The position numbers and the translations under genes were made by a program. The notes beneath the pieces are model-generated. The model was given only the letters and a program-made list of their open reading frames with translations. It searched no databases and was not told the DNA's origin. Of a DNA stretch of 64,000 nucleotides, positions 7,230-53,276 are shown one piece after another. Position 1 is the first letter of the stretch. Every line of letters starts with the position of its first letter. The stretch is from an uncultured Actinomycetota bacterium. GTDB taxonomy: Bacteria; Actinomycetota; Actinomycetes; JACCUZ01. The stretch lies in contig CAWHJC010000014.1 in NCBI GenBank assembly GCA_963829565.1, positions 37,601 through 101,600 on the forward strand, read 5' to 3'.

Positions 7230-7842
7230 ATGCTGAACCGCTTCGCGCGTGCACTGTTCACCCGCATCTTCACGCCTATCGCAGCATTCCTGGTGCGGCG
7301 GGGAGTGAGCCCCGACGCGGTCACCTTCTTCGGGACCCTCGGCGTCGTCGCCGGGGCGCTCGGCTTCTTCCCACGCGGCGAGTTCTTCTGGGGCACCGTC
7401 GTCATCACCTGCTTCGTGTTCTCCGACCTGGTCGACGGGACGATGGCGCGGATGAGCGAGCGGTCCAGCCGCTGGGGCGCGTGGCTCGACTCGACCCTCG
7501 ACCGGGTGGGGGACGCTGCGGTGTTCGGCGGCATCGCCCTGTGGTTCGCGGCCGACGGCGACGACCTGCTGATGTGCGCGCTCGCGCTCTACTGCCTGTC
7601 CATCGGGCGCCGTCGTGTCGTACGCGCGCGCCCGCGCCGAGGGGCTCGGGATGACAGCGGACGTGGGGATCACCGAGCGGGCCGACCGGCTGGTCATCGT
7701 CCTGGTGGCTACCGGGCTGGACGGTCTCGGCGTGCCCTACCTGCAGGCGCTCGCGCTCTGGTACGTCGCGGTCGGCAGCACCGTGACGATCGTGCAGCGC
7801 GCGCTGGTGGTCCGCCGGCAGGCACTCGCCGAGTCCCCCTGA
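7230..7842 (+). CDS. pgsA: Phosphatidylinositol phosphate synthase (CDP-alcohol phosphatidyltransferase), frameshift ~7605
   Basis: SDLVDGTMAR...GAWLDSTLDRVGD motif; SYARARAEGLG, ERADRL; synteny with patA-pimA. Confidence 0.9.
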
Positions 7843-7843
7843 C

Positions 7844-8762
7844 GTGCGGGCCGCGCTGACCTACCGGCTCTACGCCGCCGCCTGGGCGCTGGTCCGCTGG
7901 CTGCCGGAGCGGGCGGCGTACCGGTTGTTCTCGCTGGTCGCCGAGGCGATGTGGCGCCGGCAGGGTGCGGCGGTGCGGCGGCTGGAGGCGAACCTGCGAC
8001 GGGCCCGGCCGGACGCCGGCCGGGAGGAGCTGCGGTCGCTGACCAGGGCGGGGCTGCACTCCTACCTCCGCTACTGGTGCGACGCCTTCCGGCTGCCGGA
8101 CTGGGACCGCGACCGGGTCGTGACGACGGTGCGGGTCGAGGGCGAGCACCACCTGCGGGACAGCACCGGCGACGGTCGCCGGGGGGTGGTCGCCGCGCTG
8201 ATGCACATGGGCAACTGGGACCACGCCGGCGCGTGGGCGTCCCTGACCGGCGCCCCGGTCGTCACCGTGGCGGAGCGGCTGCGCCCCGAGCGGCTGTACG
8301 AGCGCTTCCTCGCGTACCGCCAGGGCCTGGGCATGGAGATCCTGCCGCTGACCGGCGGCGCCGGTGACCTGCTCGACACCCTCGCCTCCCGGCTGCGGGC
8401 CGGCCGGCTGGTGCCGCTGCTGGCCGACCGCGACCTGCGCTCGTCGGGGATCCCGGTCGACCTGCTCGGGTGACGCGACGCGGATGCCGCCGGGGCCGGC
8501 GATGCTCGCGCTGCGGACCGGTGCGGCGCTGCACCCGGTGAGCATCTGGCACGAGGACTCCGGTGGCAGCGTCCCGCGGCTGGTGATCAGGTTCCACGAC
8601 GAGGTCGAGCCGCCGCCGGCCGGGCCTACCCGTGAGAGGGTCACGGCCATGACCCAGCAGGTCGCCGACGTGTTCGGCGAGGCGATCCGCGCCCACCCGC
8701 AGGACTGGCACATGCTGCAGCCGCTGTGGCTGGACGACCTGCCGACCGCCGTCGGCAGGTGA
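7844..8762 (+). CDS. patA: Phosphatidylinositol mannoside acyltransferase (frameshift ~8470)
   Basis: SYLRYWCDAFRLP, HMGNWDHAGAW, LLADRDL, HPQDWHMLQPLW. Confidence 0.88.
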
Positions 8763-8772
8763 TGGAGACGCC

Positions 8773-9932
8773 GTGAGAGTCGGCATCGTCTGCCCGTACT
8801 CCTGGGACGTCCCGGGCGGCGTGCAGTACCACGTTCGGGACCTGAGCGAGGTGCTCCGGTCGCGCGGTCACGAGGTGTCGGTGCTGGCCCCGGCGGACGA
8901 CGACACCCCGCTTCCGCCGTACGTCGTGCCGGCCGGCCGGGCCGTCCCCGTGCCCTACAACGGGTCGGTCGCCCGGGTGAACTTCGGCCCGCTGTCCGCC
9001 ACCCGGGTGCGGCGCTGGCTGCGCGAGGGCCACTTCGACGTGCTGCACATCCACGAGCCGGCGACGCCCTCTCTGTCGCTGCTGGCCTGCTGGGCGGCGA
9101 CCGGCCCGATCGTGGCGACCTTCCACACGTCGAACCTCCGGTCGCGCGCGATGATCGCCGCGTCCCCGTTCCTCGAGCCGGCGCTGGAGAAGATCGGCGC
9201 CCGGGTGGCCGTGTCGGAGGACGCGCGGCGCACCGTGGTCGAGCACGTCGGGGGTGACGCCGTGCTGATCCCGAACGGCGTCTTCGTGGACCGGTTCGCC
9301 GCGGCCGAGCCCAACCCTGCCTGGCGGGGCGACGGACGGCACGGTCGGCTTCATCGGCCGGCTGGACGAGGCCCGCAAGGGCCTGCCGACACTGCTGGCA
9401 GCGATGGAGCAGGTCGTGGCCGAGCGGCCCGGGGTCCGCCTGCTGGTGGCCGGTCGGGGCGACGCCGAGGAGGCCGTGGAGGACCTGCCGGACGGAGGTG
9501 CGGGCTCGCGTCACGTTCCTGGGGACGGTCAGCGAGGCCGACAAGGCGCGGCTGCTGCGCACCGTCGACGTCTACGTGGCGCCGAACCTGGGCGGCGAGA
9601 GCTTCGGGGTCATCCTCGTCGAGGCCATGTCCGCGGGGGCGCCGGTGCTCGCCTCGGACCTCGACGCGTTCGGCCGGGTGCTCGACGACGGCCGGGTGGG
9701 CGTCCTGTTCCCCGCGGGTGACGTCGCCGCGCTGTCCCGGTCGCTGCTGCGGCTGCTCGGCGACGACGAGCTGCGGGCCGGCCTGCGCGCCGGTGCCGAG
9801 GCGTGGGTGCGGCGCTTCGACTGGGCAACCGTCGCCGACGAGCTGCTCGCGGTGTACGAGACGGTGGCCGCCGGCAACGACGCGGTCGGCGAGGCCGACG
9901 TCCGTCCCTGGCGCGACCGCCTCCGCCGCTGA
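8773..9932 (+). CDS. pimA: GT4 phosphatidyl-myo-inositol alpha-mannosyltransferase (frameshifted)
   Basis: MRVGIVCPYSWDVPGGVQYHV, DVLHIHEP, APNLGGESFGVILVEAMSAG. Confidence 0.9.
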
Positions 9933-42047: not shown

Positions 42048-42512
42048 ATGAGGGCGGGGGTGCGGGTCGGCGTCGACGTCGGGTCGGTCCGGGTCGGGGT
42101 GGCGACCTGCGACCCGGCGGGGCTGATCGCGACGCCGGTGGAGACGCTGCGGCGGGGCCGTGGCGACCTCGACGCCCTGTCACGGCTGGTGACCGAGCGT
42201 GAGGCGATCGAGGTCGTGGTGGGATTGCCCACCACGCTGGCCGGCCGGCACGGGGCAGCGGCCGAGGCCGCGCAGGCCTACGCGGAGGCGGTCGCCGGCG
42301 CGGTGGCCGTCCCGGTTCGACTTGTCGACGAGCGGTTGTCTACCGTGGGTGCGCAGCGTGATCTCCGCGCCAGCGGGGTAGACACGCGCAGGGGCCGCAG
42401 CGTGATCGACCAGGCTGCGGCTGTCATCATTCTGCAGGCAGCCCTGGACGCCGAGCGGCGCTCCGGGACCGCGCCGGGACGGCTCGTCGGTCGCACGCCA
42501 GCCACCGACTGA
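42048..42512 (+). CDS. ruvX: YqgF/RuvX family RNase H-fold nuclease
   Basis: VGVDVGSVRVGVATCD, VVVGLP, LVDERLST, IDQAAAVIILQ. Confidence 0.92.
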   Translation: MRAGVRVGVDVGSVRVGVATCDPAGLIATPVETLRRGRGDLDALSRLVTEREAIEVVVGLPTTLAGRHGAAAEAAQAYAEAVAGAVAVPVRLVDERLSTVGAQRDLRASGVDTRRGRSVIDQAAAVIILQAALDAERRSGTAPGRLVGRTPATD

Positions 42513-42574
42513 CCGCCCTCGCGACGACCGTCGAGGGGCGGACACGCGGAGAGGCGAACGGAGAGAGCGAAACC

Positions 42575-43682
42575 ATGACGAACCTGTCGGTGTGGTCCGA
42601 CGAGGAGGTGCAGCCCCCTCGTCGGCGACGCCGGAAGAAGAAGGAGCGCAAGGGGGGCCTGGCGGTCGCCATCGCCCTGCTCCTCGTGGTCGCCGTCCTG
42701 GGCGGCGGCGCAGCCCTGGTGTTCGGGGTCGGCGCCAAGATCAAGGACGCGCTCTCGACCAGCTCGGCCCCGGACTACCCCGGCCCCGGTCAGGGCGAGG
42801 TGCTCATCGAGGTCGAGCCCGGCCAGACGGTCTCCCAGGTCGGCGAGACGCTCAAGCGCGAGGACGTCATCAAGAGCACCCAGGCCTTCTTCGAGGTGGC
42901 CAACGCCAACCCGGAGTCGTCCACCTTGCAGCCCGGCTTCTACTCGCTGCAGCACAAGATGCCCGCCGCCGACGCCTGGACACCCTGCTCGACCCCTCGG
43001 CCAGGGTGCAGGCCAAGGTCACGCTGCCCGAAGGCCTGCGGCTGGACGAGACCCTGGAGAAGCTGGCGACCGGCACCGAGCTCCCGCTGAAGGACTACCG
43101 CCGGCGCTCAAGAACGCCGAGGACCTGGGCCTGCCCGACTACGCGCAGGGCAACCCGGAGGGCTTCCTGTACCCGGCCACCTACGAGGTGCCGCCGGACG
43201 CCGACGCCGCGTCGGTGCTCGAGCAGCTCTTCACGGCGTACGCCGGGGCAGCCGAGGAGGCCGGCATCGAGCGGACGCCGCGCGACCCGGAGGAGCTCGT
43301 CATCATCGCCAGCCTGGTCGAGGCCGAGGCCCGCCACGACGAGGACTTCGGCAAGGTGGCCCGCGTGGTCTACAACCGGCTCGAGGCCGGGATGCCGCTG
43401 CAGTTCGACTCGACGGTCAACTACGCGCTCAAGGCCGACAAGGAGATCGTCACCTACGAGGACCTCGGCGAGGACTCGCCGTACAACACCTACCAGAACA
43501 CCGGCCTGCCGCCGGCCCCGATCAACTCGCCGGGGCTGAAGGCGATGACCGCGGCCGTCAACCCCCCGGACGGCGACTGGCTGTACTTCGTGACGACCGA
43601 CCCCGAGGCCGGGACCACCAAGTTCACCGGCGACTACCAGGAGTTCCTCCGGTTCAAGGACGAGCTCAAGTCCAACCAGTGA
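42575..43682 (+). CDS. mltG: Endolytic transglycosylase MltG (indels)
   Basis: TM anchor; EGFLYPATY, IIASLVEAE, VARVVYNRL, LQFDSTVNY, SPYNTY...GLPPAPINSPG, WLYFVT. Confidence 0.93.
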
Positions 43683-43692
43683 GCCCGCGACA

Positions 43693-44530
43693 GTGATGCA
43701 GGCGGCCACCCGGCGGGCCGGTGTGCTCGGCTCGCCGATCGGGCACTCGCTGTCGCCGACCCTGCACACGGCCGCCTACGAGGCGCTCGGGCTGACCGGG
43801 TGGACCTACCAGGCGTACGACGTGACGGAGCCCGACCTGGCCGACTTCCTGGCCGGTATGGACGACTCCTGGGCCGGCCTGTCGCTCACGATGCCGCTGA
43901 AGGCCGCGGTGCTTCCCCTGCTGGACGGCTCGTCGCCGATGGTGGAGGCCGTCGCCGCGGCCAACACGGTGGTGCTCACCGACGGTCGCCGTACTGGGCG
44001 AGAACACCGACGTACCCGGGATGGTGGCCTCGCTCGCCGCTCACGACGTGCGGGCGGTTCCGCACGCGACCGTGCTGGGCGGCGGGGCGACCGCGCGCTC
44101 GGCGCTGGCCGCGCTGGCCGGGGTCACCGGGTCGGCGACGGCGTACGTCCGGTCGAGCAGCCGGACGCCCGCGCTCACCGCGACGGCCGAGGCGGTCGGG
44201 CTGAGCCTGCAGGTGCGGCCGTGGTCGGCCGCGGCGGAGGCCCTGGGCGCCCCTCTCGTGGTCAACACCACGCCGGCGGGCGCCGCCGACCCGCTGGTCG
44301 TGCACGTCCCCCGGACGGTGGGCACCCTGCTCGAGGTGCTCTACGACCCGTGGCCGACACCGCTGGCCGCCGCGTGGGGGGCGCGCGGCGGGCAGGTCGT
44401 CGACGGGCTGGACCTGCTGGTGCACCAGGCGGTGCTGCAGGTGGGCCTGATGACCGGCGCCGAGGTGGACGTCCCGGGACTCGTCGGCCTGCTGCGGGCG
44501 GCGGGGGAGCGGGCGCTGCGCTCGCGGTGA
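43693..44530 (+). CDS. aroE: Shikimate dehydrogenase (frameshift ~44000)
   Basis: GSPIGHSLSP, GLSLTMPLK, ANTVV, LGGGATARS, VNTTP, YDPWPT, GLDLLVHQA. Confidence 0.93.
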
Positions 44531-44537
44531 TCCCCGG

Positions 44538-44564
44538 CTCAAGGGCTCACCCCGTCGCGCCGAT
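44538..44564 (+). promoter_or_regulatory. sigma28/WhiG-like promoter CTCA-N17-GCCGAT before the roadblock gene
   Basis: CCCGGCTCAAG...GCCGAT; same motif before pilT and the minor pilins. Confidence 0.65.
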
Positions 44565-44623
44565 GGCCTCCTAGAGACGGCGGGCCCTCGGGTCCCGTCG
44601 AAGGCGACACCTGAGGTGGGACG

Positions 44624-45192
44624 ATGAGCGAAGCGTACGGAGACACCAGCACCAGCCGGTCCGCCCGGCTGGACCGCATCCTGACCGAGCTGGTCGGGCA
44701 GGTGCCCGAGATCGAGGCCGCGTCAGTGGTGTCCTTCGACGGGCTCGCGATGGCGTCCGCGCTACCCGCCGCCATGGACGAGGACCGGGTGGCCGCGATG
44801 AGCGCCGCCCTGCTCTCGCTCGGCGAGCGGGCCGCCGAAGGCCTCGGTCGCGGAATGCTGTCCCAGGTCTACGTCGAGGGCGAGAACGGCACCGTCTTCC
44901 TCATCTCGGCCGACGACGAGGCCGTCCTGGTCGCGGTCGCGGCCAAGGGCGCCAAGGTGGGCCTGATGCTCTTCGAGGTACGTCGGGCAGCTGCCGCCGT
45001 CGCCGAGGCCCTGCGGGTCGAGCTCGACTACGGTCAGCGGCCGACGAGCTGCCCGCTCCCGCACCGCTGCAGGTCGTGAGCCCGGCTCCGGCCGCATCGT
45101 CGGACCGGTCGCCCTACGACCCGCCGTTCGAGTCGTCGCACTCCGCGTCCGGGGCGCACGCCGCGCCGGCCGACTCTCCGTCCTGGAGCTGA
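44624..45192 (+). CDS. Roadblock/LC7 (MglB-like) protein; ORF ends 45079 as read, tail probably continues to TGA 45190-45192
   Basis: ASVVSFDGLAMAS, DRVAAMSAALLSLGERAA, QVYVEGENG, KVGLMLFEVRRAA. Confidence 0.88.
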
Positions 45193-45195
45193 CCG

Positions 45196-46505
45196 ATGAA
45201 GCTCGAAGGCTCGCTCGACGCGTTCAGCCTGCCGGACATCTTCCAGCTGCTGAGCTTCACCAAGAAGACCGGCGGCCTGCACCTGGCCAGCGACGGTGCC
45301 GACGGCGTCGTGTTCTTCGCCGCCGGCCAGGTCACCGGCGCGTCCGCCGACAGCTCCCGGCAACCGCTGGCCCGCCGCATCGTCGGCAGCGGCGCCGTGA
45401 CGGACGAGGCCCTGGTCGCTGCCGTGGACGCGGTTGCCCGCGGTGAGGGCGTAGGGGTCGTCAAGGCCCTGCTGGACTCCGACGCGGTCGACGCCGACCT
45501 GCTGCGGCAGGCAGCCCACGACCAGGCCACCGACGCGATCTTCGACCTGCTGCGCTGGCGGGTCGGCGACTTCGCCTTCGTGATGGACGAGGCCAACCCC
45601 GACGACGTCGGAGTGGCCGTCGCCATCGAGGAGGTGCTCGCCGACGCCGAGGCACGCAAGACCACCTGGGAGACCGTGTCGCAGGTGGTGCCCTCCTCCA
45701 AGTCGGTGCTCGCCATGCCGGTCGTCCTGGCCGGCGAGCCGTCGGTCAGCCGTGAGGAGTGGTCGCTGCTGGCGCTGGTCGACGGCCGGCGCAGCGTCTC
45801 CGAGCTGGTGGACCTGACCGGTAGCGGTCAGTACGCCGTGGTGTCGAACGCTGGCGGCCCTGGTGCAGCGCGGCCTCCTCGAGGTCCGCAGCGAGGGTGG
45901 CGACGGTGACGAGCTCGACCACGTCGCCGTGGTCGTCCGTCGCCAGTCGCTGCTGGCGCCGCTCGAGCAGTTCACCCCGGTGGTCGCCCCGGCGCAGTCG
46001 GTGCCCGACGTACCCGCCGCTGCGGCGCCTGCGGCCACCCCCGTCTCGGCCCCCGCGGACAACGGATGCGGGAAAGTGACCGGCGTCAGGTGGCCCAGGA
46101 CGCATCCGATGTCGCGGAGAGCGGCGACGAGGGCAGCGACAGTGCCGGCGCGGACCCCGAGCTGGTGACGGCCTCGGCCGCGCCCGACCAGCCGTCCATG
46201 CTGGGTGGCGCCCACGTGCCGCAGGACGTCGTTCCTCCCCGGCCGGAGCCGTTCCTGCCGAAGCGGCAGGCCGACTTCGACGAGTCCTCCACTGTCGTGG
46301 CATCGCCGCGCCGTGGAGCTCGCCGGCCATGCGACCGGTCAGCGTCGGCGGCAACAGCGGAGGCGGGGGAGGTGGTGGTCTCGGCGACGTCGTCGGTGCG
46401 ACCGCCACGGCGCCCGACCCGGATGCCGCGTCGGTGATCGAGCGGGACCCGAACGTCAACCGCAGCCTGATGCTGCGGCTCATCGCCGGTGTGAGGGGAC
46501 TCTAG
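45196..46505 (+). CDS. DUF4388 domain protein with winged-helix-like segment and low-complexity linker (indels)
   Basis: LEGSLDAFSLPDIFQLL...KTGGL; LLRWRVGDFAF; WSLLALVDGRRSVSELV; ends RSLMLRLIAGVRGL*. Confidence 0.8.
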
Positions 46506-47081
46506 ATGGCCACGCCGCGCACGCGCCGCCGAGGAGGGCAGGCGGTCAAGGTCGTCGTGACCGGGCCGTTCTCCGCCGGCAAGACGACGCTCATCCGGAC
46601 CATCAGCGAGATCACCGTGCTCTCCACCGAGCGCGGGATCACCGACTCGACCCGCAAGCGCAAGGCCGAGACCACGGTGGCGATGGACTTCGGTCGCATC
46701 ACCATCGACCGCGACCTGGTGCTCTACCTGTTCGGCACCCCGGGGCAGGACCGCTTCGACTTCATGTGGGAGATCCTCGGCGAGGGGATGATCGGCTACC
46801 TGCTGCTCGTCGACGTCTCGCGCGAGGAGTCCGTGCAGGAGGCGGCGAGCATCCTCGAGGCGTTCCGGCGGATGGCGCGGGTCCCCTTCGTGGTGGGCCT
46901 CAACCGTGCCTCGGCCGACGACAACCTGCTCGTCGAGAGCGTCCGCGCCCGGCTCGACATCCCCTCGGACGTCGCGATCCTGCCGTGCGACGCCACGGAC
47001 AAGGAATCGGTCAAGAACGTCCTGCTGGCGCTGCTCTACGCGGTCCTCGACGAGGTCGAGACCGAGGCCGTCCGGGCCTGA
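46506..47081 (+). CDS. MglA/CvnD-like small GTPase
   Basis: P-loop GPFSAGKTT, TTVAMDFG, LFGTPGQDRFDFMW, degenerate G4 GLNR. Confidence 0.88.
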   Translation: MATPRTRRRGGQAVKVVVTGPFSAGKTTLIRTISEITVLSTERGITDSTRKRKAETTVAMDFGRITIDRDLVLYLFGTPGQDRFDFMWEILGEGMIGYLLLVDVSREESVQEAASILEAFRRMARVPFVVGLNRASADDNLLVESVRARLDIPSDVAILPCDATDKESVKNVLLALLYAVLDEVETEAVRA

Positions 47082-47082
47082 G

Positions 47083-47352
47083 ATGGCCACGGCCGGTCGA
47101 AGCCTGTACGCGCTCGCCGGACGGGTGGGTCGGCGCCGCCGCCCCGACCCGCCGGTCGTCGTGACGGTGGTGCTCGACTCGGGGGAGCAGGTCACCGTCC
47201 CGCCGCGACTCACCGCTGGCCCGGGCCATGGGACAGGTCGCCGGCTTGCTGGCGCACTGGTGAGCCCGCAGCGGCCGCTGGTGACTACAGGAACGGGACC
47301 CGCCGCCCGATGGTCACTGAGGACATCGGCTCAGGGAGAGGACGTGGCGTGA
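47083..47352 (+). CDS. Hypothetical 89-aa ORF between GTPase and pilB
   Basis: ATG 1 nt after GTPase stop; stop overlaps pilB GTG (GTGA); no recognisable motif. Confidence 0.35.
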   Translation: MATAGRSLYALAGRVGRRRRPDPPVVVTVVLDSGEQVTVPPRLTAGPGHGTGRRLAGALVSPQRPLVTTGTGPAARWSLRTSAQGEDVA

Positions 47353-49014
47353 AGCAGCTGGGCGACATCCTGCTGGAAGGCGGGCTGGTCAACCCGACCC
47401 AGCTCGAGCTCGCCTACGCCGAGCAGGAGCGGGTCGGACGAGCCCTCGGTCGGGTCCTGATCGAGCAGGGCGTCCTGACCGAGTCCCAGCTGGTCTCGGC
47501 GCTGGCGACCCAGATCGGCCTGCGCTTCGTCGACCTCTCGGACTTCCCGGTGGACGGCTCCGCCATCGGCCGGATCCCGGGTCCCGTGTGCCGCCGGCAC
47601 GCGGCGATGCCGATCGGCTTCGAGGACGGCAAGCTGCTGGTCGCCATGGCCGACCCGGCCAACGTGTTCGCGATCGACGACATCCGCTCGCTGACCGGCA
47701 TGGACGTCAAGCCGGTGGTCGCCACCCGCGGCGACGTCGCCGCTGCCATCGACCGCTACTACCGCGCCGACTCCGACCTCGACGACATCTCCGCCGTCCT
47801 GGACGCCCAGGAGGAGGAGGACGAGCTCTCCAAGGTCAAGGAGATCGTCGAGGACGCGCCGATCGTCAAGTACGTCAACCTGCTCATCACGCAGGCGATC
47901 CAGGACCGCGCGTCGGACATCCACCTCGAGCCGACGGAGACCGACCTACGGGTCCGCTTCCGCATCGACGGCGTCCTGCACGAGGTGATGCGCTCGCCCA
48001 AGGCGATCCAGTCGGGCGTCATCAGCCGGCTGAAGATCATGGCGGACATCAACATCGCCGAGCGCCGGATCCCCCAGGACGGTCGCCTCTCCGTCAACGC
48101 CCACGGCCGCAAGATCGACCTCCGGGTCGCCACGCTGCCGACGGTGTGGGGCGAGAAGGTCGTCATGCGAATCCTGGACAACTCCACGGCGCGCCTCGAC
48201 CTGACCGACCTCGGCTTCTCCGAGGACAACTACGAGCGCTACTCGCGCAGCTTCACCAAGCCCTACGGGATGATCCTGGTCACCGGGCCGACCGGCTCCG
48301 GCAAGTCCACGACCCTCTACGCCACGCTGAACATCGTCAGCCGGCCAGAGGTGAACGTGATCACCGTCGAGGACCCGGTGGAGTACCGGCTGCCCGGCAT
48401 CAACCAGGTGCAGACCAACAACAAGGCCGGCCTGACCTTCGCCTCGGCGCTGCGCTCGATCCTGCGCTCGGACCCGGACATCGTGCTCATCGGTGAGATC
48501 CGGGACCACGAGACCGGACAGATCGCCGTCGAGGCAGCCCTCACCGGTCACCTCGTGCTGTCGACCCTGCACACCAACGACGCCCCCTCGGCGGTCACCC
48601 GGCTGACCGAGATGGGCATCGAACCGTTCCTGGTGGGGTCGGCGCTGGACGCCGTTCTCGCCCAGCGCCTCGCCCGCCGGCTGTGCGTCAAGTGCAAGGA
48701 GGCGTACACGCCGACCCGGGAGTCCCTGGTGGCGTCGCGGTTCCCGTGGTCGGACGACAAGCCGCTGCCGGAGCTGTTCCGGCCGATCGGCTGCTCGGCG
48801 TGCGCCAAGACCGGCTACAAGGGCCGCCTGGCCCTGCACGAGGTGATGATCGTCAGCGAGGAGGTCGAGCGGCTCGCGGTCGAGCGCGCCTCGGCCACGG
48901 TCATCTCGCAGGTCGCGCGGGAACGAGGGCATGCGGACGCTGCGGGACGACGGGCTGGACAAGGTCCTCGCGGGCGTCACATCGATGGACGAGATCCTCC
49001 GGGTCGTCGTCTAA
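47349..49014 (+). CDS. pilB: Type IV pilus assembly ATPase PilB (late frameshift)
   Basis: MshEN-like QLGDILLEGGLV...LGRVLIEQG; ASDIHLEP, AERRIPQDG, GPTGSGKSTT, EDPVEY, RSDPDIVLIGEIRD, STLHTND; Cys pairs CVKC and CSAC. Confidence 0.93.
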
Positions 49015-49039
49015 AGGCTTGGCAAGGTCGCCCTCCCGG

Positions 49040-49066
49040 CTCAAGCCAGGGGCCGACCCGGCCGAT
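49040..49066 (+). promoter_or_regulatory. sigma28/WhiG-like promoter CTCA-N17-GCCGAT before pilT
   Basis: CCCGGCTCAAG...GCCGAT, 61 nt upstream of GTG 49128. Confidence 0.65.
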
Positions 49067-49127
49067 CCTTCGCGAGAACAGGTGCGCCCGCCGTCCGCGG
49101 GCCACCGGAGCTGAGAGGGGTCAGCAC

Positions 49128-50727
49128 GTGGAGACGTCCGGATACCAGCCGGTCCCGAGTGAGCCGGGGGGCTTCACCTCGATGCCCGTCCCCGTGCCCG
49201 AGGAAGAGGCACCGGCCGGCGAGGGGTGGACCTACTCCTCCTCGGCCGACGCGCGCGCCCGAGGCCGAGGCGCCGCTGGACGGCACCGTCTCCTTCGCCG
49301 AGCCGCCCGCTGCTTTCGCCGAGCCCGTCCCTTCGCCGAGCCGGTCTCCTTCGCCGAGCCGGTTGCGTACGCCGAGGCCGCTGCGTTCGCCGAGCCGGTT
49401 CCGCCGGCCGAGCCGGCGGCCGACCCGCTCGGGCGCCGGGTACGCCCTGGAGCAGTCGAACGTCCCGGTGCAGGCACCCCCGCCCTACGCGCTGCCCGAG
49501 CAGGCCGCCCCGGCGGCGAGCTCGCATCGCCCCTCGTCGCGGCCTTCGCGGGCGAGGTCGTGACCCTTCGAGGCGGGCGAGTCCTCCGTGCTGATCGCCG
49601 AGTCGGAGGCCGAGGAGTCGGCCTACCAGCGCGGCTCCACCGAGGCGGAGGGTGACGAGAACGACATCACCCTCAACGACCTGCTGATGCACGTGCTCGA
49701 CACCGGCGCCTCCGACCTGCACCTCACGTCGGGCGCCCGGCCCGCGATCCGCCTGAACGGCGAGCTGAAGCAGCTCGAGGACCAGCCGATCCTCACCCCG
49801 CCCGTGATCCAGCGGGTGATGTACGCGGCCCTGACCCAGAAGCAGCGGGAGAAGTTCGAGGAGAACCTCGAGCTCGACTTCGCCTACAGCGTGCCCGGCC
49901 GAGCCCGGTTCCGCGTCAACATCTACCGCCAGCGCGACGCGCTCGGTGCGGCCTTCCGCATCATCCCGTTCGAGATCCGCAAGCTCGAGGACCTGGGCGT
50001 CCCGCCGTCGGTGGCGAACTTCGCCTCGCTCCCGCGCGGCTTCGTCCTCGTCACCGGCCCGACCGGCTCGGGCAAGTCCACGACGCTGGCCTCGCTGATC
50101 GACCTCGCGAACCGGACCCGCAGCGAGCACATCATGACCGTCGAGGACCCGATCGAGTTCCTCCACCGGCACCAGAAGTGCATCGTGAACCAGCGCGAGG
50201 TGGGGGAGGACACCTGGTCCTTCCAGAACGCGCTCAAGCACGTGCTCCGCCAGGACCCCGACATCATCCTGGTCGGCGAGATGCGCGACCTCGAGACGAT
50301 CTCGGTCGCCCTGACCGCCGCCGAGACCGGTCACCTCGTCTTCGCCACCCTGCACACCCAGGACGCGGCCCAGACGATCGACCGCATCATCGACGTCTTC
50401 CCGACCAACCAGCAGCAGCAGGTCCGCGTCCAGCTGGCCGGCTCGCTGCAGGGTGTGGTCTGCCAGACCCTGGCCAAGACCCGCGACGGGCGCGGCCGAG
50501 CGGTGGCCACCGAGGTGCTGGTCGCCACGCCGGCGATCCGCAACCTGATCCGCGAGGGCAAGACGCACCAGATCTACTCGGCGATGCAGGCCGGGGCCAA
50601 GCACGGCATGCACACGATGGACCAGCACCTCGCGGACCTGGTCATGAAGGGCAAGATCACCTACGAGGTCGGCCTCGAGAAGTGCCACCACGTCGAGGAC
50701 TTCAACCGGCTCTCCGGCCGAGGCTGA
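49128..50727 (+). CDS. pilT: Type IV pilus retraction ATPase PilT with ~170-aa disordered N-terminal extension (indels in extension)
   Basis: GASDLHLTSG, RFRVNIYRQR, GPTGSGKSTTLA, EDPIEF, LRQDPDIILVGEMRD, AETGHLVFATLHT, AIRNLIRE. Confidence 0.95.
49288..49415 (+). repeat. About seven imperfect 18-bp coding tandem repeats (VSFAEP-like hexapeptides)
   Basis: GTCTCCTTCGCCGAGCCG and variants in tandem. Confidence 0.75.
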
Positions 50728-50738
50728 GAGGCATTCCG

Positions 50739-51970
50739 ATGGCAGCGACGCTGACTTTCCAGTACTCGGTGCGCGACCGCACCGGCAAGATCGTCTCCGG
50801 GACGCTCGAGGCGGAGTCCCAGACCGCCGTGGCCTCCAAGCTGAAGCAGATGGGCTACGCGCCCGTCAGCATCACCAAGTCCAAGGCCGGGATGAAGACG
50901 GACATCAACATCCCGGGCTTCGGCAAGAAGAAGGTGAAGCTCAAGGACCTGGCGGTCATGTCGCGACAGTTCGCGACGATGATCAACTCCGGCCTGTCGA
51001 TGCTTCGCTCGCTGACCATCCTGGCGGAGCAGACCGACAACAAGGAGCTCGCCCGGGTCCTTGGGCGAGGTGGGCAAGGACGTGGAGACCGGCGGCGCGC
51101 TGTCGGCGTCGCTGGCCAAGCACCCGAACGTCTTCCCGCCGTTGTTCGTCAACATGTGCCGGGCCGGCGAGGTCGGGGGCTTCCTGGACTCCGTGCTCCT
51201 CCAGATCGCGGCGAACTACGAGGCCGAGGTCAAGCTGCGCGGCAAGGTCAAGTCCGCGATGACCTACCCGGTCGTCGTGCTCGTGATGGCCATCCTCGCC
51301 GTGATCGGCATGCTGCTGTTCATCGTCCCGACGTTCGCCGCGATGTTCGACACCCTCGGCGGTGAGCTGCCGGCTCCCACCAAGATCCTCGTGTGCGATG
51401 TCCAACCTGCTCAAGGTGGGCGCGCCGTTCCTGCTCGTCGGTGCTGATCGCCGCGTTCGTCACGTGGGGCAAGGTGAAGCACAAGCCGCAGGTCCGCAAC
51501 GTCGTCGACCCGCTCAAGCTCAAGATCCCGGTCTTCGGCAAGCTGTTCCAGAAGATCGCCCTGAGCCGGTTCGCCCGCAACCTCGGCACCATGATGCACT
51601 CCGGCGTGCCGATCCTGCAGAGCCTCGAGATCGTCGTCGGACACCACCGGCAACGTCGTCCTGGCACGGGCGATCCGCGACGTCCAGGACAGCGTCCGGA
51701 GCGGTGAGTCGTTGGCCGCCCCGCTGGCCAACCACCCGGTCTTCCCGCCCGATGGTGGTGCAGATGATGTCCGTCGGTGAGGACACCGGCGCGCTGGACA
51801 CCATGCTGCACAAGATCTCCGAGTTCTACGACCAGGAGGTCGAGGCGACGACCGAGTCGCTGACCGCGCTGATCGAGCCGCTGATGATCGCCTTCCTCGG
51901 CGGCATCGTCGGGTCCATGATCATCGCGCTCTACATGCCGATCTTCAAGATCTTCGACCTGATCGAGTAG
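50739..51970 (+). CDS. pilC: Type IV pilus platform protein PilC (indels)
   Basis: RQFATMINSGL, HPNVFPPLF, AGEVGGFL, KVKSAMTYP, GEDTGALDTML, LIEPLMI, ALYMPIF. Confidence 0.93.
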
Positions 51971-51983
51971 CCGACCCCAGCTC

Positions 51984-52022
51984 GCCGGAGGGCCGGACCC
52001 TGACAGGGTCCGGCCCTCCGGC
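51984..52022 (+). terminator. 19-bp perfect hairpin after pilC
   Basis: GCCGGAGGGCCGGACCCTG-A-CAGGGTCCGGCCCTCCGGC. Confidence 0.75.
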
Positions 52023-52124: not shown

Positions 52125-52217
52125 CCGGCCAGAAACGGCACACCCGTCGAAAGACGGGGTCGCAAAGCCAGGGAACCGCGTGACAGAGATCGCGGTCAGC
52201 CCAGCTGCCTCGGCCGG
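52125..52217 (+). ncRNA. c-di-GMP-I (GEMM) riboswitch in the major pilin leader
   Basis: GGCACACCCGTC-GAAA-GACGGGGTCGCAAAGCC aligns gap-free to the Vc2 P2 core as I recall it (G20=52137, GAAA loop 52149-52152, A47=52164); P3 ends CAGCCCAGCTGCC; P1 CCGGCC/GGCCGG. Confidence 0.88.
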
Positions 52218-53231: not shown

Positions 53232-53276
53232 ATCGGCGTCGCGCGGAGGCTCAACCGGCCTCCGCGCGATGCCGAT
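53232..53276 (+). promoter_or_regulatory. 19-bp hairpin containing a CTCA-N17-GCCGAT promoter motif (53250-53276)
   Basis: ATCGGCGTCGCGCGGAGGC-TCAACCG-GCCTCCGCGCGATGCCGAT. Confidence 0.6.

Follow-up and report, generated by a model that had tools for sequence, protein, structure and literature searches.

A candidate four-gene G-protein cassette for the type IVa pilus in Actinomycetota, with features of the conservons

Introduction

Two groups of described systems combine a Ras-like GTPase with a Roadblock protein in ways that matter here: the MglA/MglB systems of Myxococcus xanthus (along with SofG) and Thermus thermophilus, which are linked to type IV pili (T4P), and the conservons (AGPS) of Actinomycetota, made up of CvnA-CvnB-CvnC-CvnD or, in mycobacteria, of the Mfp proteins. 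Here we analyze 64,000 nt of DNA from an uncultured Actinomycetota bacterium (contig CAWHJC010000014.1, designated C14; G+C approximately 72%), this whole stretch being called the window below, in which genes for a Roadblock protein, a PATAN (DUF4388)/CvnC-like fusion protein, a small GTPase and a small tail protein, in this order, precede the pilus genes pilB, pilT and pilC. We propose, with a probability of roughly 0.62, that these four genes constitute a G-protein cassette devoted to the type IVa pilus, a function deduced from sequence comparisons.

As to the conservons, MfpC (a DUF742 protein, homologue of CvnC) was demonstrated by nucleotide-exchange assays to act as an exchange factor (GEF) for guanine nucleotides in mycobacteria, while MfpD (Roadblock, homologue of CvnB) is the GTPase-activating protein (GAP) for the GTPase MfpB (PMC11343762, PMC13343842). 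DUF742 has been described as having a typical helix-turn-helix, and the system studied exerts its effect on translation (PMC11343762); the conservons of Streptomyces affect gene expression (PMC13343842), and the outputs of conservon GTPases are diverse, involving MfpA/gyrase and specialized metabolism (PMC4316618, PMC13343842). As to PATAN, the domain binds the N-terminal domains of PilB1 and of PilC in Synechocystis, and the PATAN domain of PixE, on its own, binds both of these domains and reverses phototaxis; the PATAN regulators are found at the membrane, and the authors argue against DNA binding (bioRxiv 10.1101/2021.06.11.447907). A conserved role of PATAN in pilus control was a speculation of Han et al. 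Gene neighborhoods of MglB/MglA and PATAN have been noted previously (Makarova et al., 2006; Wuichet and Sogaard-Andersen, 2014; PMC4316618), and Groups 2-5 of MglA have been defined by a Thr replacing the Arg finger, by the motif GTPGQ and, in the MglB with which they are coupled, by an Asp-Gly pair (PMC4316618).

When compared with the conservons, the locus reveals the same order of Roadblock protein, winged-helix protein and GTPase, the middle protein ends in the motif ...L(L/I)xR(L/V)(L/I)xG(L/V)Rx(L/I) in both, and the GTPase and CvnD have the stretches ETTVAMDFGRI and LYLFGTPGQ in common; the roles are likely equal as well, with Roadblock as the GAP and the DUF742-like part as the GEF. 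Unlike a conservon, the cassette does not include a CvnA kinase, a promoter motif lying between aroE and the Roadblock gene; its middle protein has PATAN at the N-terminus and, further on, a long disordered linker, and it is missed by the DUF742 model; its GTPase falls outside the CvnD clade and carries no CvnD switch-I insertion; and it includes a fourth small gene and has a fixed place beside pilBTC. With the Mgl systems the cassette shares a Ras-like GTPase, a Roadblock partner and the link to T4P, but its GTPase, about 25% identical to MglA, has Thr and GTPGQ where MglA has the Arg finger and TVPGQ, its exchange factor would be CvnC-like rather than RomR/RomX, and, unlike in Myxococcus and Thermus, its genes lie inside the pilus locus. 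The host, to judge from its phylum, is presumably a monoderm. PATAN/DUF4388 is likewise N-terminal in the PatA-type PATAN-REC proteins of Synechocystis (PixG, PixE, PilG/TaxP) and is the output domain in cyanobacteria; in the cassette protein, however, a winged helix and a CvnC-type helix, with a disordered linker between them, stand in the place of a receiver, and its input would be a GTPase cycle and not phosphorylation.

A precedent with which the locus agrees is presented by the neighborhoods, loosely described, of MglA Group 5, MglB and PATAN, in which the three families are occasional neighbors; the Group 2-5 signatures all hold for the cassette. What is new relative to PMC4316618 is the fixed four-gene cassette, its phylum-wide place upstream of pilBTC, the CvnC-like tail and the fourth gene. 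Full-text searches turned up no paper describing the cassette, its constant position ahead of pilBTC in Actinomycetota or the CvnC-like tail. A previous reading from sequence only (the sequence-only reading) was aware of no characterization of the module in a monoderm pilus system; the MglB/PATAN neighborhoods had been noted in 2006 and 2014, the pilus-linked cassette had not.

The cassette and its linkage to pilB

The features of the locus are collected in Table 1. The sequence-only reading recognized a three-gene module, with 47082-47349 as plain intergenic DNA; we find four genes, the fourth being a conserved small gene in this very interval. The gaps of 3 nt (TGA 45190-45192/ATG 45196) and 0 nt (TAG 46503-46505/ATG 46506) that it reported are correct for the frame-corrected genes and not for the genes as assembled.

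Table 1. Features of the cassette and of the adjoining pilus locus (positions in the window).
Feature	Position	Strand	Details
Promoter-like motif CTCAAG-N15-GCCGAT	44538..44564	+	60 nt before the Roadblock start codon
Roadblock/LC7 gene, MglB/CvnB-like	44624..45192	+	PF03259, E 6.8e-18 (Pfam, 44624-45076)
PATAN(DUF4388)-winged helix-disordered linker-C-terminal helix gene	45196..46505	+	PF14332, E 1.7e-22
C-terminal helix, CvnC-type terminal motif	46458..46502	+	NRSLMLRLIAGVRGL, 15 last residues
Small GTPase gene, MglA family Group 2-5 type, CvnD-like, 191 aa	46506..47081	+	PF03029, Ras
Fourth small gene, ~60 aa	47083..47263	+	1 nt past the GTPase stop; conserved small open reading frames in relatives
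Degenerate motif CTAC-N17-CCCGAT	47285..47311	+	Two mismatches; before pilB; read from sequence
pilB, type IVa pilus assembly ATPase	47349..49011	+	T2SSE, E 1.7e-135, and MshEN (Pfam)
CTCA-N17-GCCGAT copy	49040-49066	+	Before pilT
pilT	~49128-50724	+	95% identical to L004 PilT
pilC	50739-51967	+	68-93% identical to L004 PilC, by segment
CTCA-N17-GCCGAT copy	53250-53276	+	Before minor pilins

Through the GTPase, 80 related loci were retrieved (L-numbers), of which L001-L053 are Actinomycetes loci, from metagenome-assembled genomes (MAGs) of Frankiales, Mycobacteriales, Nanopelagicales and Acidothermaceae. The order mltG-aroE-Robl-PATAN-GTPase-pilB-pilT-pilC is found in most of L001-L053. L044, from a MAG of an Acidothermus sp., is among the loci with the cassette. 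In the loci of the Geothermincolia type aroE stands between the GTPase gene and pilB, and in Coriobacteriia the cassette is flanked by two pilB genes; the linkage of the cassette to pilB survives rearrangement.

The linkage was quantified at two levels. At the level of the phylum (400 species), PilB is encoded in 285 of the 400 genomes and a PATAN match is present in 110, 106 of these also being positive for PilB. GTPase orthologues in this sample (69, matching at E 2.4e-43 or better, the CvnD paralogues scoring 5e-41 or worse) have PATAN within 8 kb upstream in 61 cases; in 54 a same-strand PilB lies no more than 8 kb away, and 48 have both. At the level of the class (200 species, drawn evenly), 85 genomes, representing 58 of 124 genera, possess a PATAN orthologue, including 8 of 8 genomes of the same family, in which the match spans the orthologue wholly or for the most part. 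The best matches of 82 of the 85 genomes have an orthologous PilB on the same contig in 69 cases, always downstream and on the same strand, with none upstream or on the opposite strand and 52 of the 69 within 3 kb; the remaining 13 of the 82 genomes are fragmented assemblies. The co-occurrence of the genes with pilB, which the sequence-only reading had named as a check on itself, is thus strongly positive at the level of both class (69/69 same-contig cases downstream) and phylum (54/69 within 8 kb).

Could the adjacency to pilB be a mere inherited gene order, the cassette being a general conservon-like module with some other output, such as the cell wall or division, given that mltG is nearby? 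The diversity of conservon GTPase outputs, MfpA/gyrase and specialized metabolism among them (PMC4316618, PMC13343842), would allow for this, and the mltG-aroE-pilB block is conserved even in a genome without the cassette (G097, see below). However, the linkage to pilB is kept where aroE and mltG sit elsewhere and where the cassette has a second pilB at its side, PilB is more frequent among PATAN-positive genomes than overall (106/110 versus 285/400), the promoter motif of the cassette is common to pilT and the minor-pilin genes, and the affinity of a (cyanobacterial) PATAN for PilB and PilC has been shown experimentally. We consider such a general module quite improbable.

The GTPase and its Roadblock partner

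Pfam matches of the GTPase (46506-47078) are to PF03029 (E 2.6e-18) and Ras (E 2.2e-7). It was aligned with MglA structures and with 25 CvnD proteins, to which it is 45-50% identical; among the structural matches listed, MglA has the highest identity (20-23%). The P-loop is GPFSAGKT (G20-T27), T56 occupies the place that the Arg finger has in MglA, the switch I Thr being T57 (context ...AETTVAMDF, aligned to 6hjh and 3t12), and the G3 motif is G77TPGQ81, with the catalytic Gln. G4 reads N133RAS instead of NKxD; the Anaerolineae orthologues retain NKQD, and the CvnD proteins are variable at G4.

The Roadblock gene, two genes upstream of the GTPase gene, encodes a protein whose relatives in the Protein Data Bank (PDB) are 7f8m (E 5.8e-22), 9jue, CvnB5 (3leq) and Rv3364c (9hef). 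It carries the stretch ...VVSFDGLAMAS..., in which FDG corresponds to the Asp-Gly pair described for those MglB proteins that are coupled with GTPases of Groups 2-5 (PMC4316618). With the Thr and GTPGQ of the GTPase, all signatures of MglA Groups 2-5 are thus found, and the designation 'MglAB-type' of the sequence-only reading does not apply in its strict sense, that of Group 1 with the MglA of M. xanthus, T. thermophilus and Bdellovibrio, the Arg finger and TVPGQ being absent, while the Roadblock partner is present. Of these groups, Group 5 would be the one to which the GTPase belongs, an assignment made by exclusion. The Roadblock orthologues of Actinomycetes have a long Pro/Ala-rich C-terminal tail (approximately 45060-45189 in the window), whose end, ...W(S/T)SYAPSGSVLPG...xWS, is conserved in many lineages; the orthologues of Coriobacteriia and Anaerolineae are without this tail.

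In our phylogeny, the window GTPase groups with pil-linked sequences of Actinomycetes in a clade of 53 (support 95/92), and the clade of the 25 CvnD sequences (100/99) excludes all 81 PATAN-linked GTPases. Origin of the locus as a conservon that has lost cvnA is therefore not favored, as the GTPase falls outside the CvnD clade. That no kinase gene heads the locus was correctly recognized in the sequence-only reading: the genes upstream of the cassette are aroE and mltG, here as well as in approximately 50 relatives.

The middle gene: PATAN with a CvnC-like tail

The Pfam match to PF14332 covers residues 4-159 of the segment at 45196-45906, and intact orthologues are 360-450 aa long. In an AlphaFold2 (AF2) model of the L004 orthologue, built with 48 orthologues, residues 1-230 form one compact unit, consisting of PATAN with a helical insert and the winged helix, at a predicted local distance difference test score (pLDDT) above 90, followed by a helix at 245-260, disorder at 270-420 and a terminal helix at 425-435. 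The N-terminal PATAN domain, the winged-helix segment (residues 185-235, matching MarR_2 below threshold) and the C-terminal helix of the sequence-only reading are all confirmed. An intact orthologue gave no match to REC, the CheY-like receiver domain, querying the PDB with the PATAN protein sequence likewise gave none, and the best match of the model in a Foldseek search of the PDB had an E of 0.14. Binding of cyclic di-GMP (c-di-GMP) by PATAN is not claimed: the likeness of the helical insert to the N-terminal domain of a PilB (7lkn_A; 53 columns, 32% identity, E 2.6 by Foldseek) is weak, and hidden Markov models for MshEN and the c-di-GMP motif fail to back it.

The terminal helix is near-invariant across the Actinomycetes orthologues and is recognizable in Coriobacteriia, Geothermincolia (TKSIIMRIIDGIKRL) and Anaerolineae (VKRGVILRLIDRIRGL), directly preceding the GTPase gene in all these groups. 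The same motif ends 24 conservon CvnC/DUF742 proteins (for example, LLERVLSGLRRL and LITRLIAGVRAL), in which a winged helix also precedes it, and a regular expression for the motif found a single match, the PATAN gene, among the 35,600 open reading frames (ORFs) of at least 60 aa in the genome. By hhalign, the modules that follow PATAN match CvnC with a probability of 84% (E 7.4e-6) over 54 columns, a match limited to the winged helix, which is a common fold. The DUF742 model (PF05331), which matches true CvnC proteins at E 1e-29 to 1e-34, misses the PATAN tails; the likeness to CvnC rests on hhalign and on the terminal motif. With moderate confidence, we read the middle gene as a fusion that joins PATAN to a CvnC-like module, and the order of Roadblock, tail and GTPase would therefore match CvnB-CvnC-CvnD gene for gene. 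The role of 'scaffold or GEF', previously suggested for the middle protein, gains support from homology (the CvnC/DUF742-like tail, PATAN binding in Synechocystis), the function itself being deduced. A hint that the terminal helix may dock on the GTPase comes from a one-chain model, in which the stop codon of the L003 PATAN gene was read through into the in-frame GTPase gene, with unpaired alignment rows: the pLDDT of the helix rises from approximately 68 alone to approximately 93, a rise that is no measure of an interface.

A winged helix also brings up the possibility that the PATAN protein binds DNA and serves as a transcription factor for pil genes, the GTPase and Roadblock merely modulating DNA binding. 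Consistent with this are the MarR_2 match, the helix-turn-helix of DUF742 (PMC11343762) and the effects of Streptomyces conservons on expression (PMC13343842). Against this, the consensus of the third, 'recognition' helix, FAVVSxLAGLVxRGLL, includes only a single basic residue, and AF2 packs the winged helix tightly on PATAN as a single unit; moreover, the DUF742 protein that has been studied is a GEF in a system acting on translation (PMC11343762), and PATAN regulators are at the membrane and bind PilB/PilC (bioRxiv 10.1101/2021.06.11.447907). We thus hold a transcription factor to be unlikely and the fusion protein of a pilus-dedicated cassette to be the better reading of this gene.

Further observations on this family can be added. 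In deep-branching Actinomycetota the PATAN/CvnC-like protein reaches 1000-1300 aa (Geothermincolia-type L054, L055, L064 and L080; families f32/f38 of the phylum sample), with a very large insert separating the winged helix from the terminal helix. In Actinomycetes orthologues the linker has a conserved motif, (V/I)xPxRPEPFxPxR (approximately 46215-46260 in the window, 360-372 in L004), and its RPEPFxPxR part coincides with a local bump in pLDDT (approximately 72) amid disorder. A second, divergent PATAN ORF is present outside the pilus loci (C17:15161-15814, L082; open frame of 670 aa, PF14332 at E 4e-10).

The fourth gene

The product of the fourth gene reads MATAGRSLYALAGRVGRRRRPDPPVVVTVVLDSGEQVTVPP / DSPLARAMGQVAGLLAHW; L001-L004 have small ORFs in the corresponding position that match it. 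By a strict pattern, the gene is found in at least 27 related loci, starting between -14 and +17 nt from the GTPase stop. The protein has a basic N-terminus (..RRR..GRH..), a Pro/Ala-rich linker and the C-terminal motif V.LGF.DGS...L..P....A..LA..L, and a Pfam search with it found no family. In Coriobacteriia and in Ca. Geothermocultor an N-terminal transmembrane helix replaces the basic motif; because of this membrane anchor in the deep-branching lineages, the protein may be a membrane tether.

Promoter motif, translational coupling and the pilus genes

The motif CTCA-N17-GCCGAT occurs in three copies in the window versus 0.19 expected, all on the plus strand and inside the pilus locus, and none of 100 shuffles reaches three. 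The pilus-type promoter motif of the sequence-only reading is thus real and non-random, being common to the cassette, pilT and the minor-pilin genes. In the related loci, CTCAAG-N15/16-GCCGA is found upstream of Roadblock in 40 of the 66 loci that have a Roadblock gene, all of them among L001-L053, and further copies often precede pilB or pilT. Scans of 44300-47500, which covers the cassette up to pilB, found neither a sigma-70 promoter nor an intrinsic terminator or terminator-like site. The genome encodes a FliA/WhiG-family sigma factor (C3:42344-43021, 281.7 bits), and it may be a sigma factor of this type that reads the motif, as the GCCGAT element fits the class. A full copy lies just upstream of pilB in several relatives, and with the degenerate motif listed in Table 1 pilB may have a weak promoter of its own.

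The final Roadblock codons (TGG AGC, Trp-Ser) contain GGAG, the ribosome-binding site for the PATAN gene, and the last PATAN codons, AGG GGA, form the Shine-Dalgarno sequence AGGGGA of the GTPase gene. This explains part of the conservation at the far ends of these C-termini, and such placement of Shine-Dalgarno boxes in the last codons of preceding genes argues for translational coupling.

PilB, PilT and PilC are all encoded downstream of the cassette. The most likely start of pilB is GTG 47349 (VKQLGDILL), preceded by GGGAGAGGA. The window PilB is 91% identical to that of L004, which scores 662.8 bits with TIGR02538 (cut-off 675.65), while the L004 PilT scores 495.6 bits with TIGR01420 (cut-off 319.1). 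This PilT orthologue (L004:9567-11240) is 558 aa long and has an N-terminal Pro/Ala/Glu-rich extension of approximately 200 residues, the PilT model spanning 208-547. The N-terminus of the L004 PilB (7729-9411) matches the MshE-type c-di-GMP motif NF053729 (58.6 bits, cut-off 38). A c-di-GMP-I riboswitch aptamer (RF01051, 56 bits versus gathering 35, E 9.9e-9) is located at 52127-52212 (+), downstream of pilC and upstream of a pilin gene. On both matches, a second input to the pilus via c-di-GMP is likely. Two further pilB-like loci are present in the genome, on C21 and C3.

Assembly quality and the frame changes

The window belongs to a genome of 3.9 Mb in 29 contigs, of 63.8% completeness and 0.42% contamination, whose closest relatives are long-read MAGs. 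Frame changes were called against the intact orthologues of L003 and L004, which are short-read MAGs. As assembled, the GTPase gene is the sole intact ORF of the cassette, the other genes having five frame changes in total. The Roadblock ORF stops at 45079 after a single change near 45031-45058, and its tail, ...PAPLQVV...PSWS, resumes in another frame up to the TGA, matching L001-L004. Four frame segments make up the PATAN gene, which ends at the TAG; its changes lie near 45848 (an extra A, with TCGAACGCT in the window against the TCGACGCT expected from relatives), around 46050-46170 and around 46290-46330, and the fourth gene has one change near 47205.

Such damage could be taken as a sign of a decaying pseudogene cluster, with the five changes real and the module dead, and loss of the cassette is indeed seen in relatives. 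However, the neighboring genes are affected at equal density (mltG 2, aroE 1, pilB 1, near 48925, pilT at least 1, pilC 4), all these changes and those of the cassette falling within one 9.5-kb stretch, and the sole conservon of the genome is likewise frame-shifted (C17:437000-439200). Amino-acid identity to relatives is 75-97% on both sides of each cassette shift, with no further damage, and the completeness score, the long-read nature of the nearest relatives and the presence of the PATAN orthologue in all 8 same-family genomes also speak against decay. Because housekeeping and pil neighbors are shifted alike and identity is high on both sides, we read the shifts as assembly indels, and real decay appears very improbable. 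The density of frame changes is approximately 1 per 500-700 bp in every gene examined (window 42500-52000; C17:437000-439200). The genome looks like an unpolished long-read assembly, and fragmentation should be expected throughout in any ORF-based annotation of it.

A proposed mechanism and its weak points

In the mechanism that we propose, the cassette would be transcribed from the CTCAAG-N15/16-GCCGA(T) promoter, of the type common to pilT and the minor pilins, by the putative sigma factor. The four genes, with gaps of 3, 0 and 1 nt and Shine-Dalgarno sequences in the preceding last codons, are, on their sequence, translationally coupled, implying a stoichiometric complex. The GTPase would cycle between GTP and GDP, with Roadblock speeding up hydrolysis, as judged from MglB and from the CvnB homologue MfpD, and with the winged helix and C-terminal helix (CvnC/DUF742-like) promoting nucleotide exchange, as judged from MfpC. 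PATAN would dock the module on the N-terminal domain of PilB and/or on PilC, in the manner of PixE and PixG, and pilus extension would in this way be gated or localized by the GTPase's nucleotide state. The product of pilB is the likely target, and positioning or toggling of PilB/PilT by the cassette is what we infer by analogy.

A number of points weigh against this proposal. First, the functions proposed for the cassette are deduced from genes, and three of its four genes are frame-shifted as assembled. Second, with its degenerate G4 (NRAS), the specificity of the GTPase for guanine is not assured. Third, the link to CvnC is challenged by the restriction of the hhalign match to a common fold and by Pfam DUF742, which does not match the PATAN tails even at E 10, and the pLDDT of the fused chain says nothing on an interface. 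Fourth, while 75 of the 113 class genomes with an orthologous PilB possess the cassette, 38 do not. One relative, G097, of the same class and with a PilB 78% identical, keeps pilB without the cassette; in its gap between aroE and pilB (L089:8600-12150) lies a group II intron reverse transcriptase/maturase split by an insertion sequence transposase, and the loss appears to be secondary. Some genomes, G176 being one, retain only the PATAN/CvnC-like gene beside pilB. With one third of the PilB genomes lacking it, the cassette should be considered common but accessory.

Relationship to the conservons

All conservons sampled here are from Actinomycetota, and in the literature they are described as restricted to this phylum. 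Rooting the tree on MglA puts the CvnD clade (100/99) inside the PATAN-linked GTPases of Actinomycetota, with the PATAN-linked sequences of Chloroflexota basal. It is possible, and we put it forward tentatively, that the pilus cassette is the older form and that the conservons descend from it. If so, and this we would advance with the same reserve, CvnC/DUF742 would be the tail of the PATAN protein minus PATAN, CvnA would have been recruited later and the original job would have been that of a T4P motor switch. Arguing against such descent, an approximately unbiased (AU) test did not reject a topology that unites all PATAN-linked GTPases and keeps CvnD separate (p 0.53); descent of the conservons from the cassette is downgraded on this account.

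Conclusion

Regulation of T4P in monoderm Actinomycetota is essentially unstudied, and the conservons are abundant, with their outputs and origin unclear; the cassette joins both. In it, a G-protein circuit comes with PilB/PilC as an obvious physical target and with piliation and twitching as a simple read-out, and the natural fusion of PATAN to a CvnC-like module points to the job of the DUF742 tail. As approximately 40% of the species sampled evenly from the class carry the cassette, which also occurs in deep-branching classes, results obtained with it would generalize widely. The cassette also suggests that PATAN is a general PilB adaptor that varied inputs can drive, phosphorylation in cyanobacteria and the GTPase cycle here.

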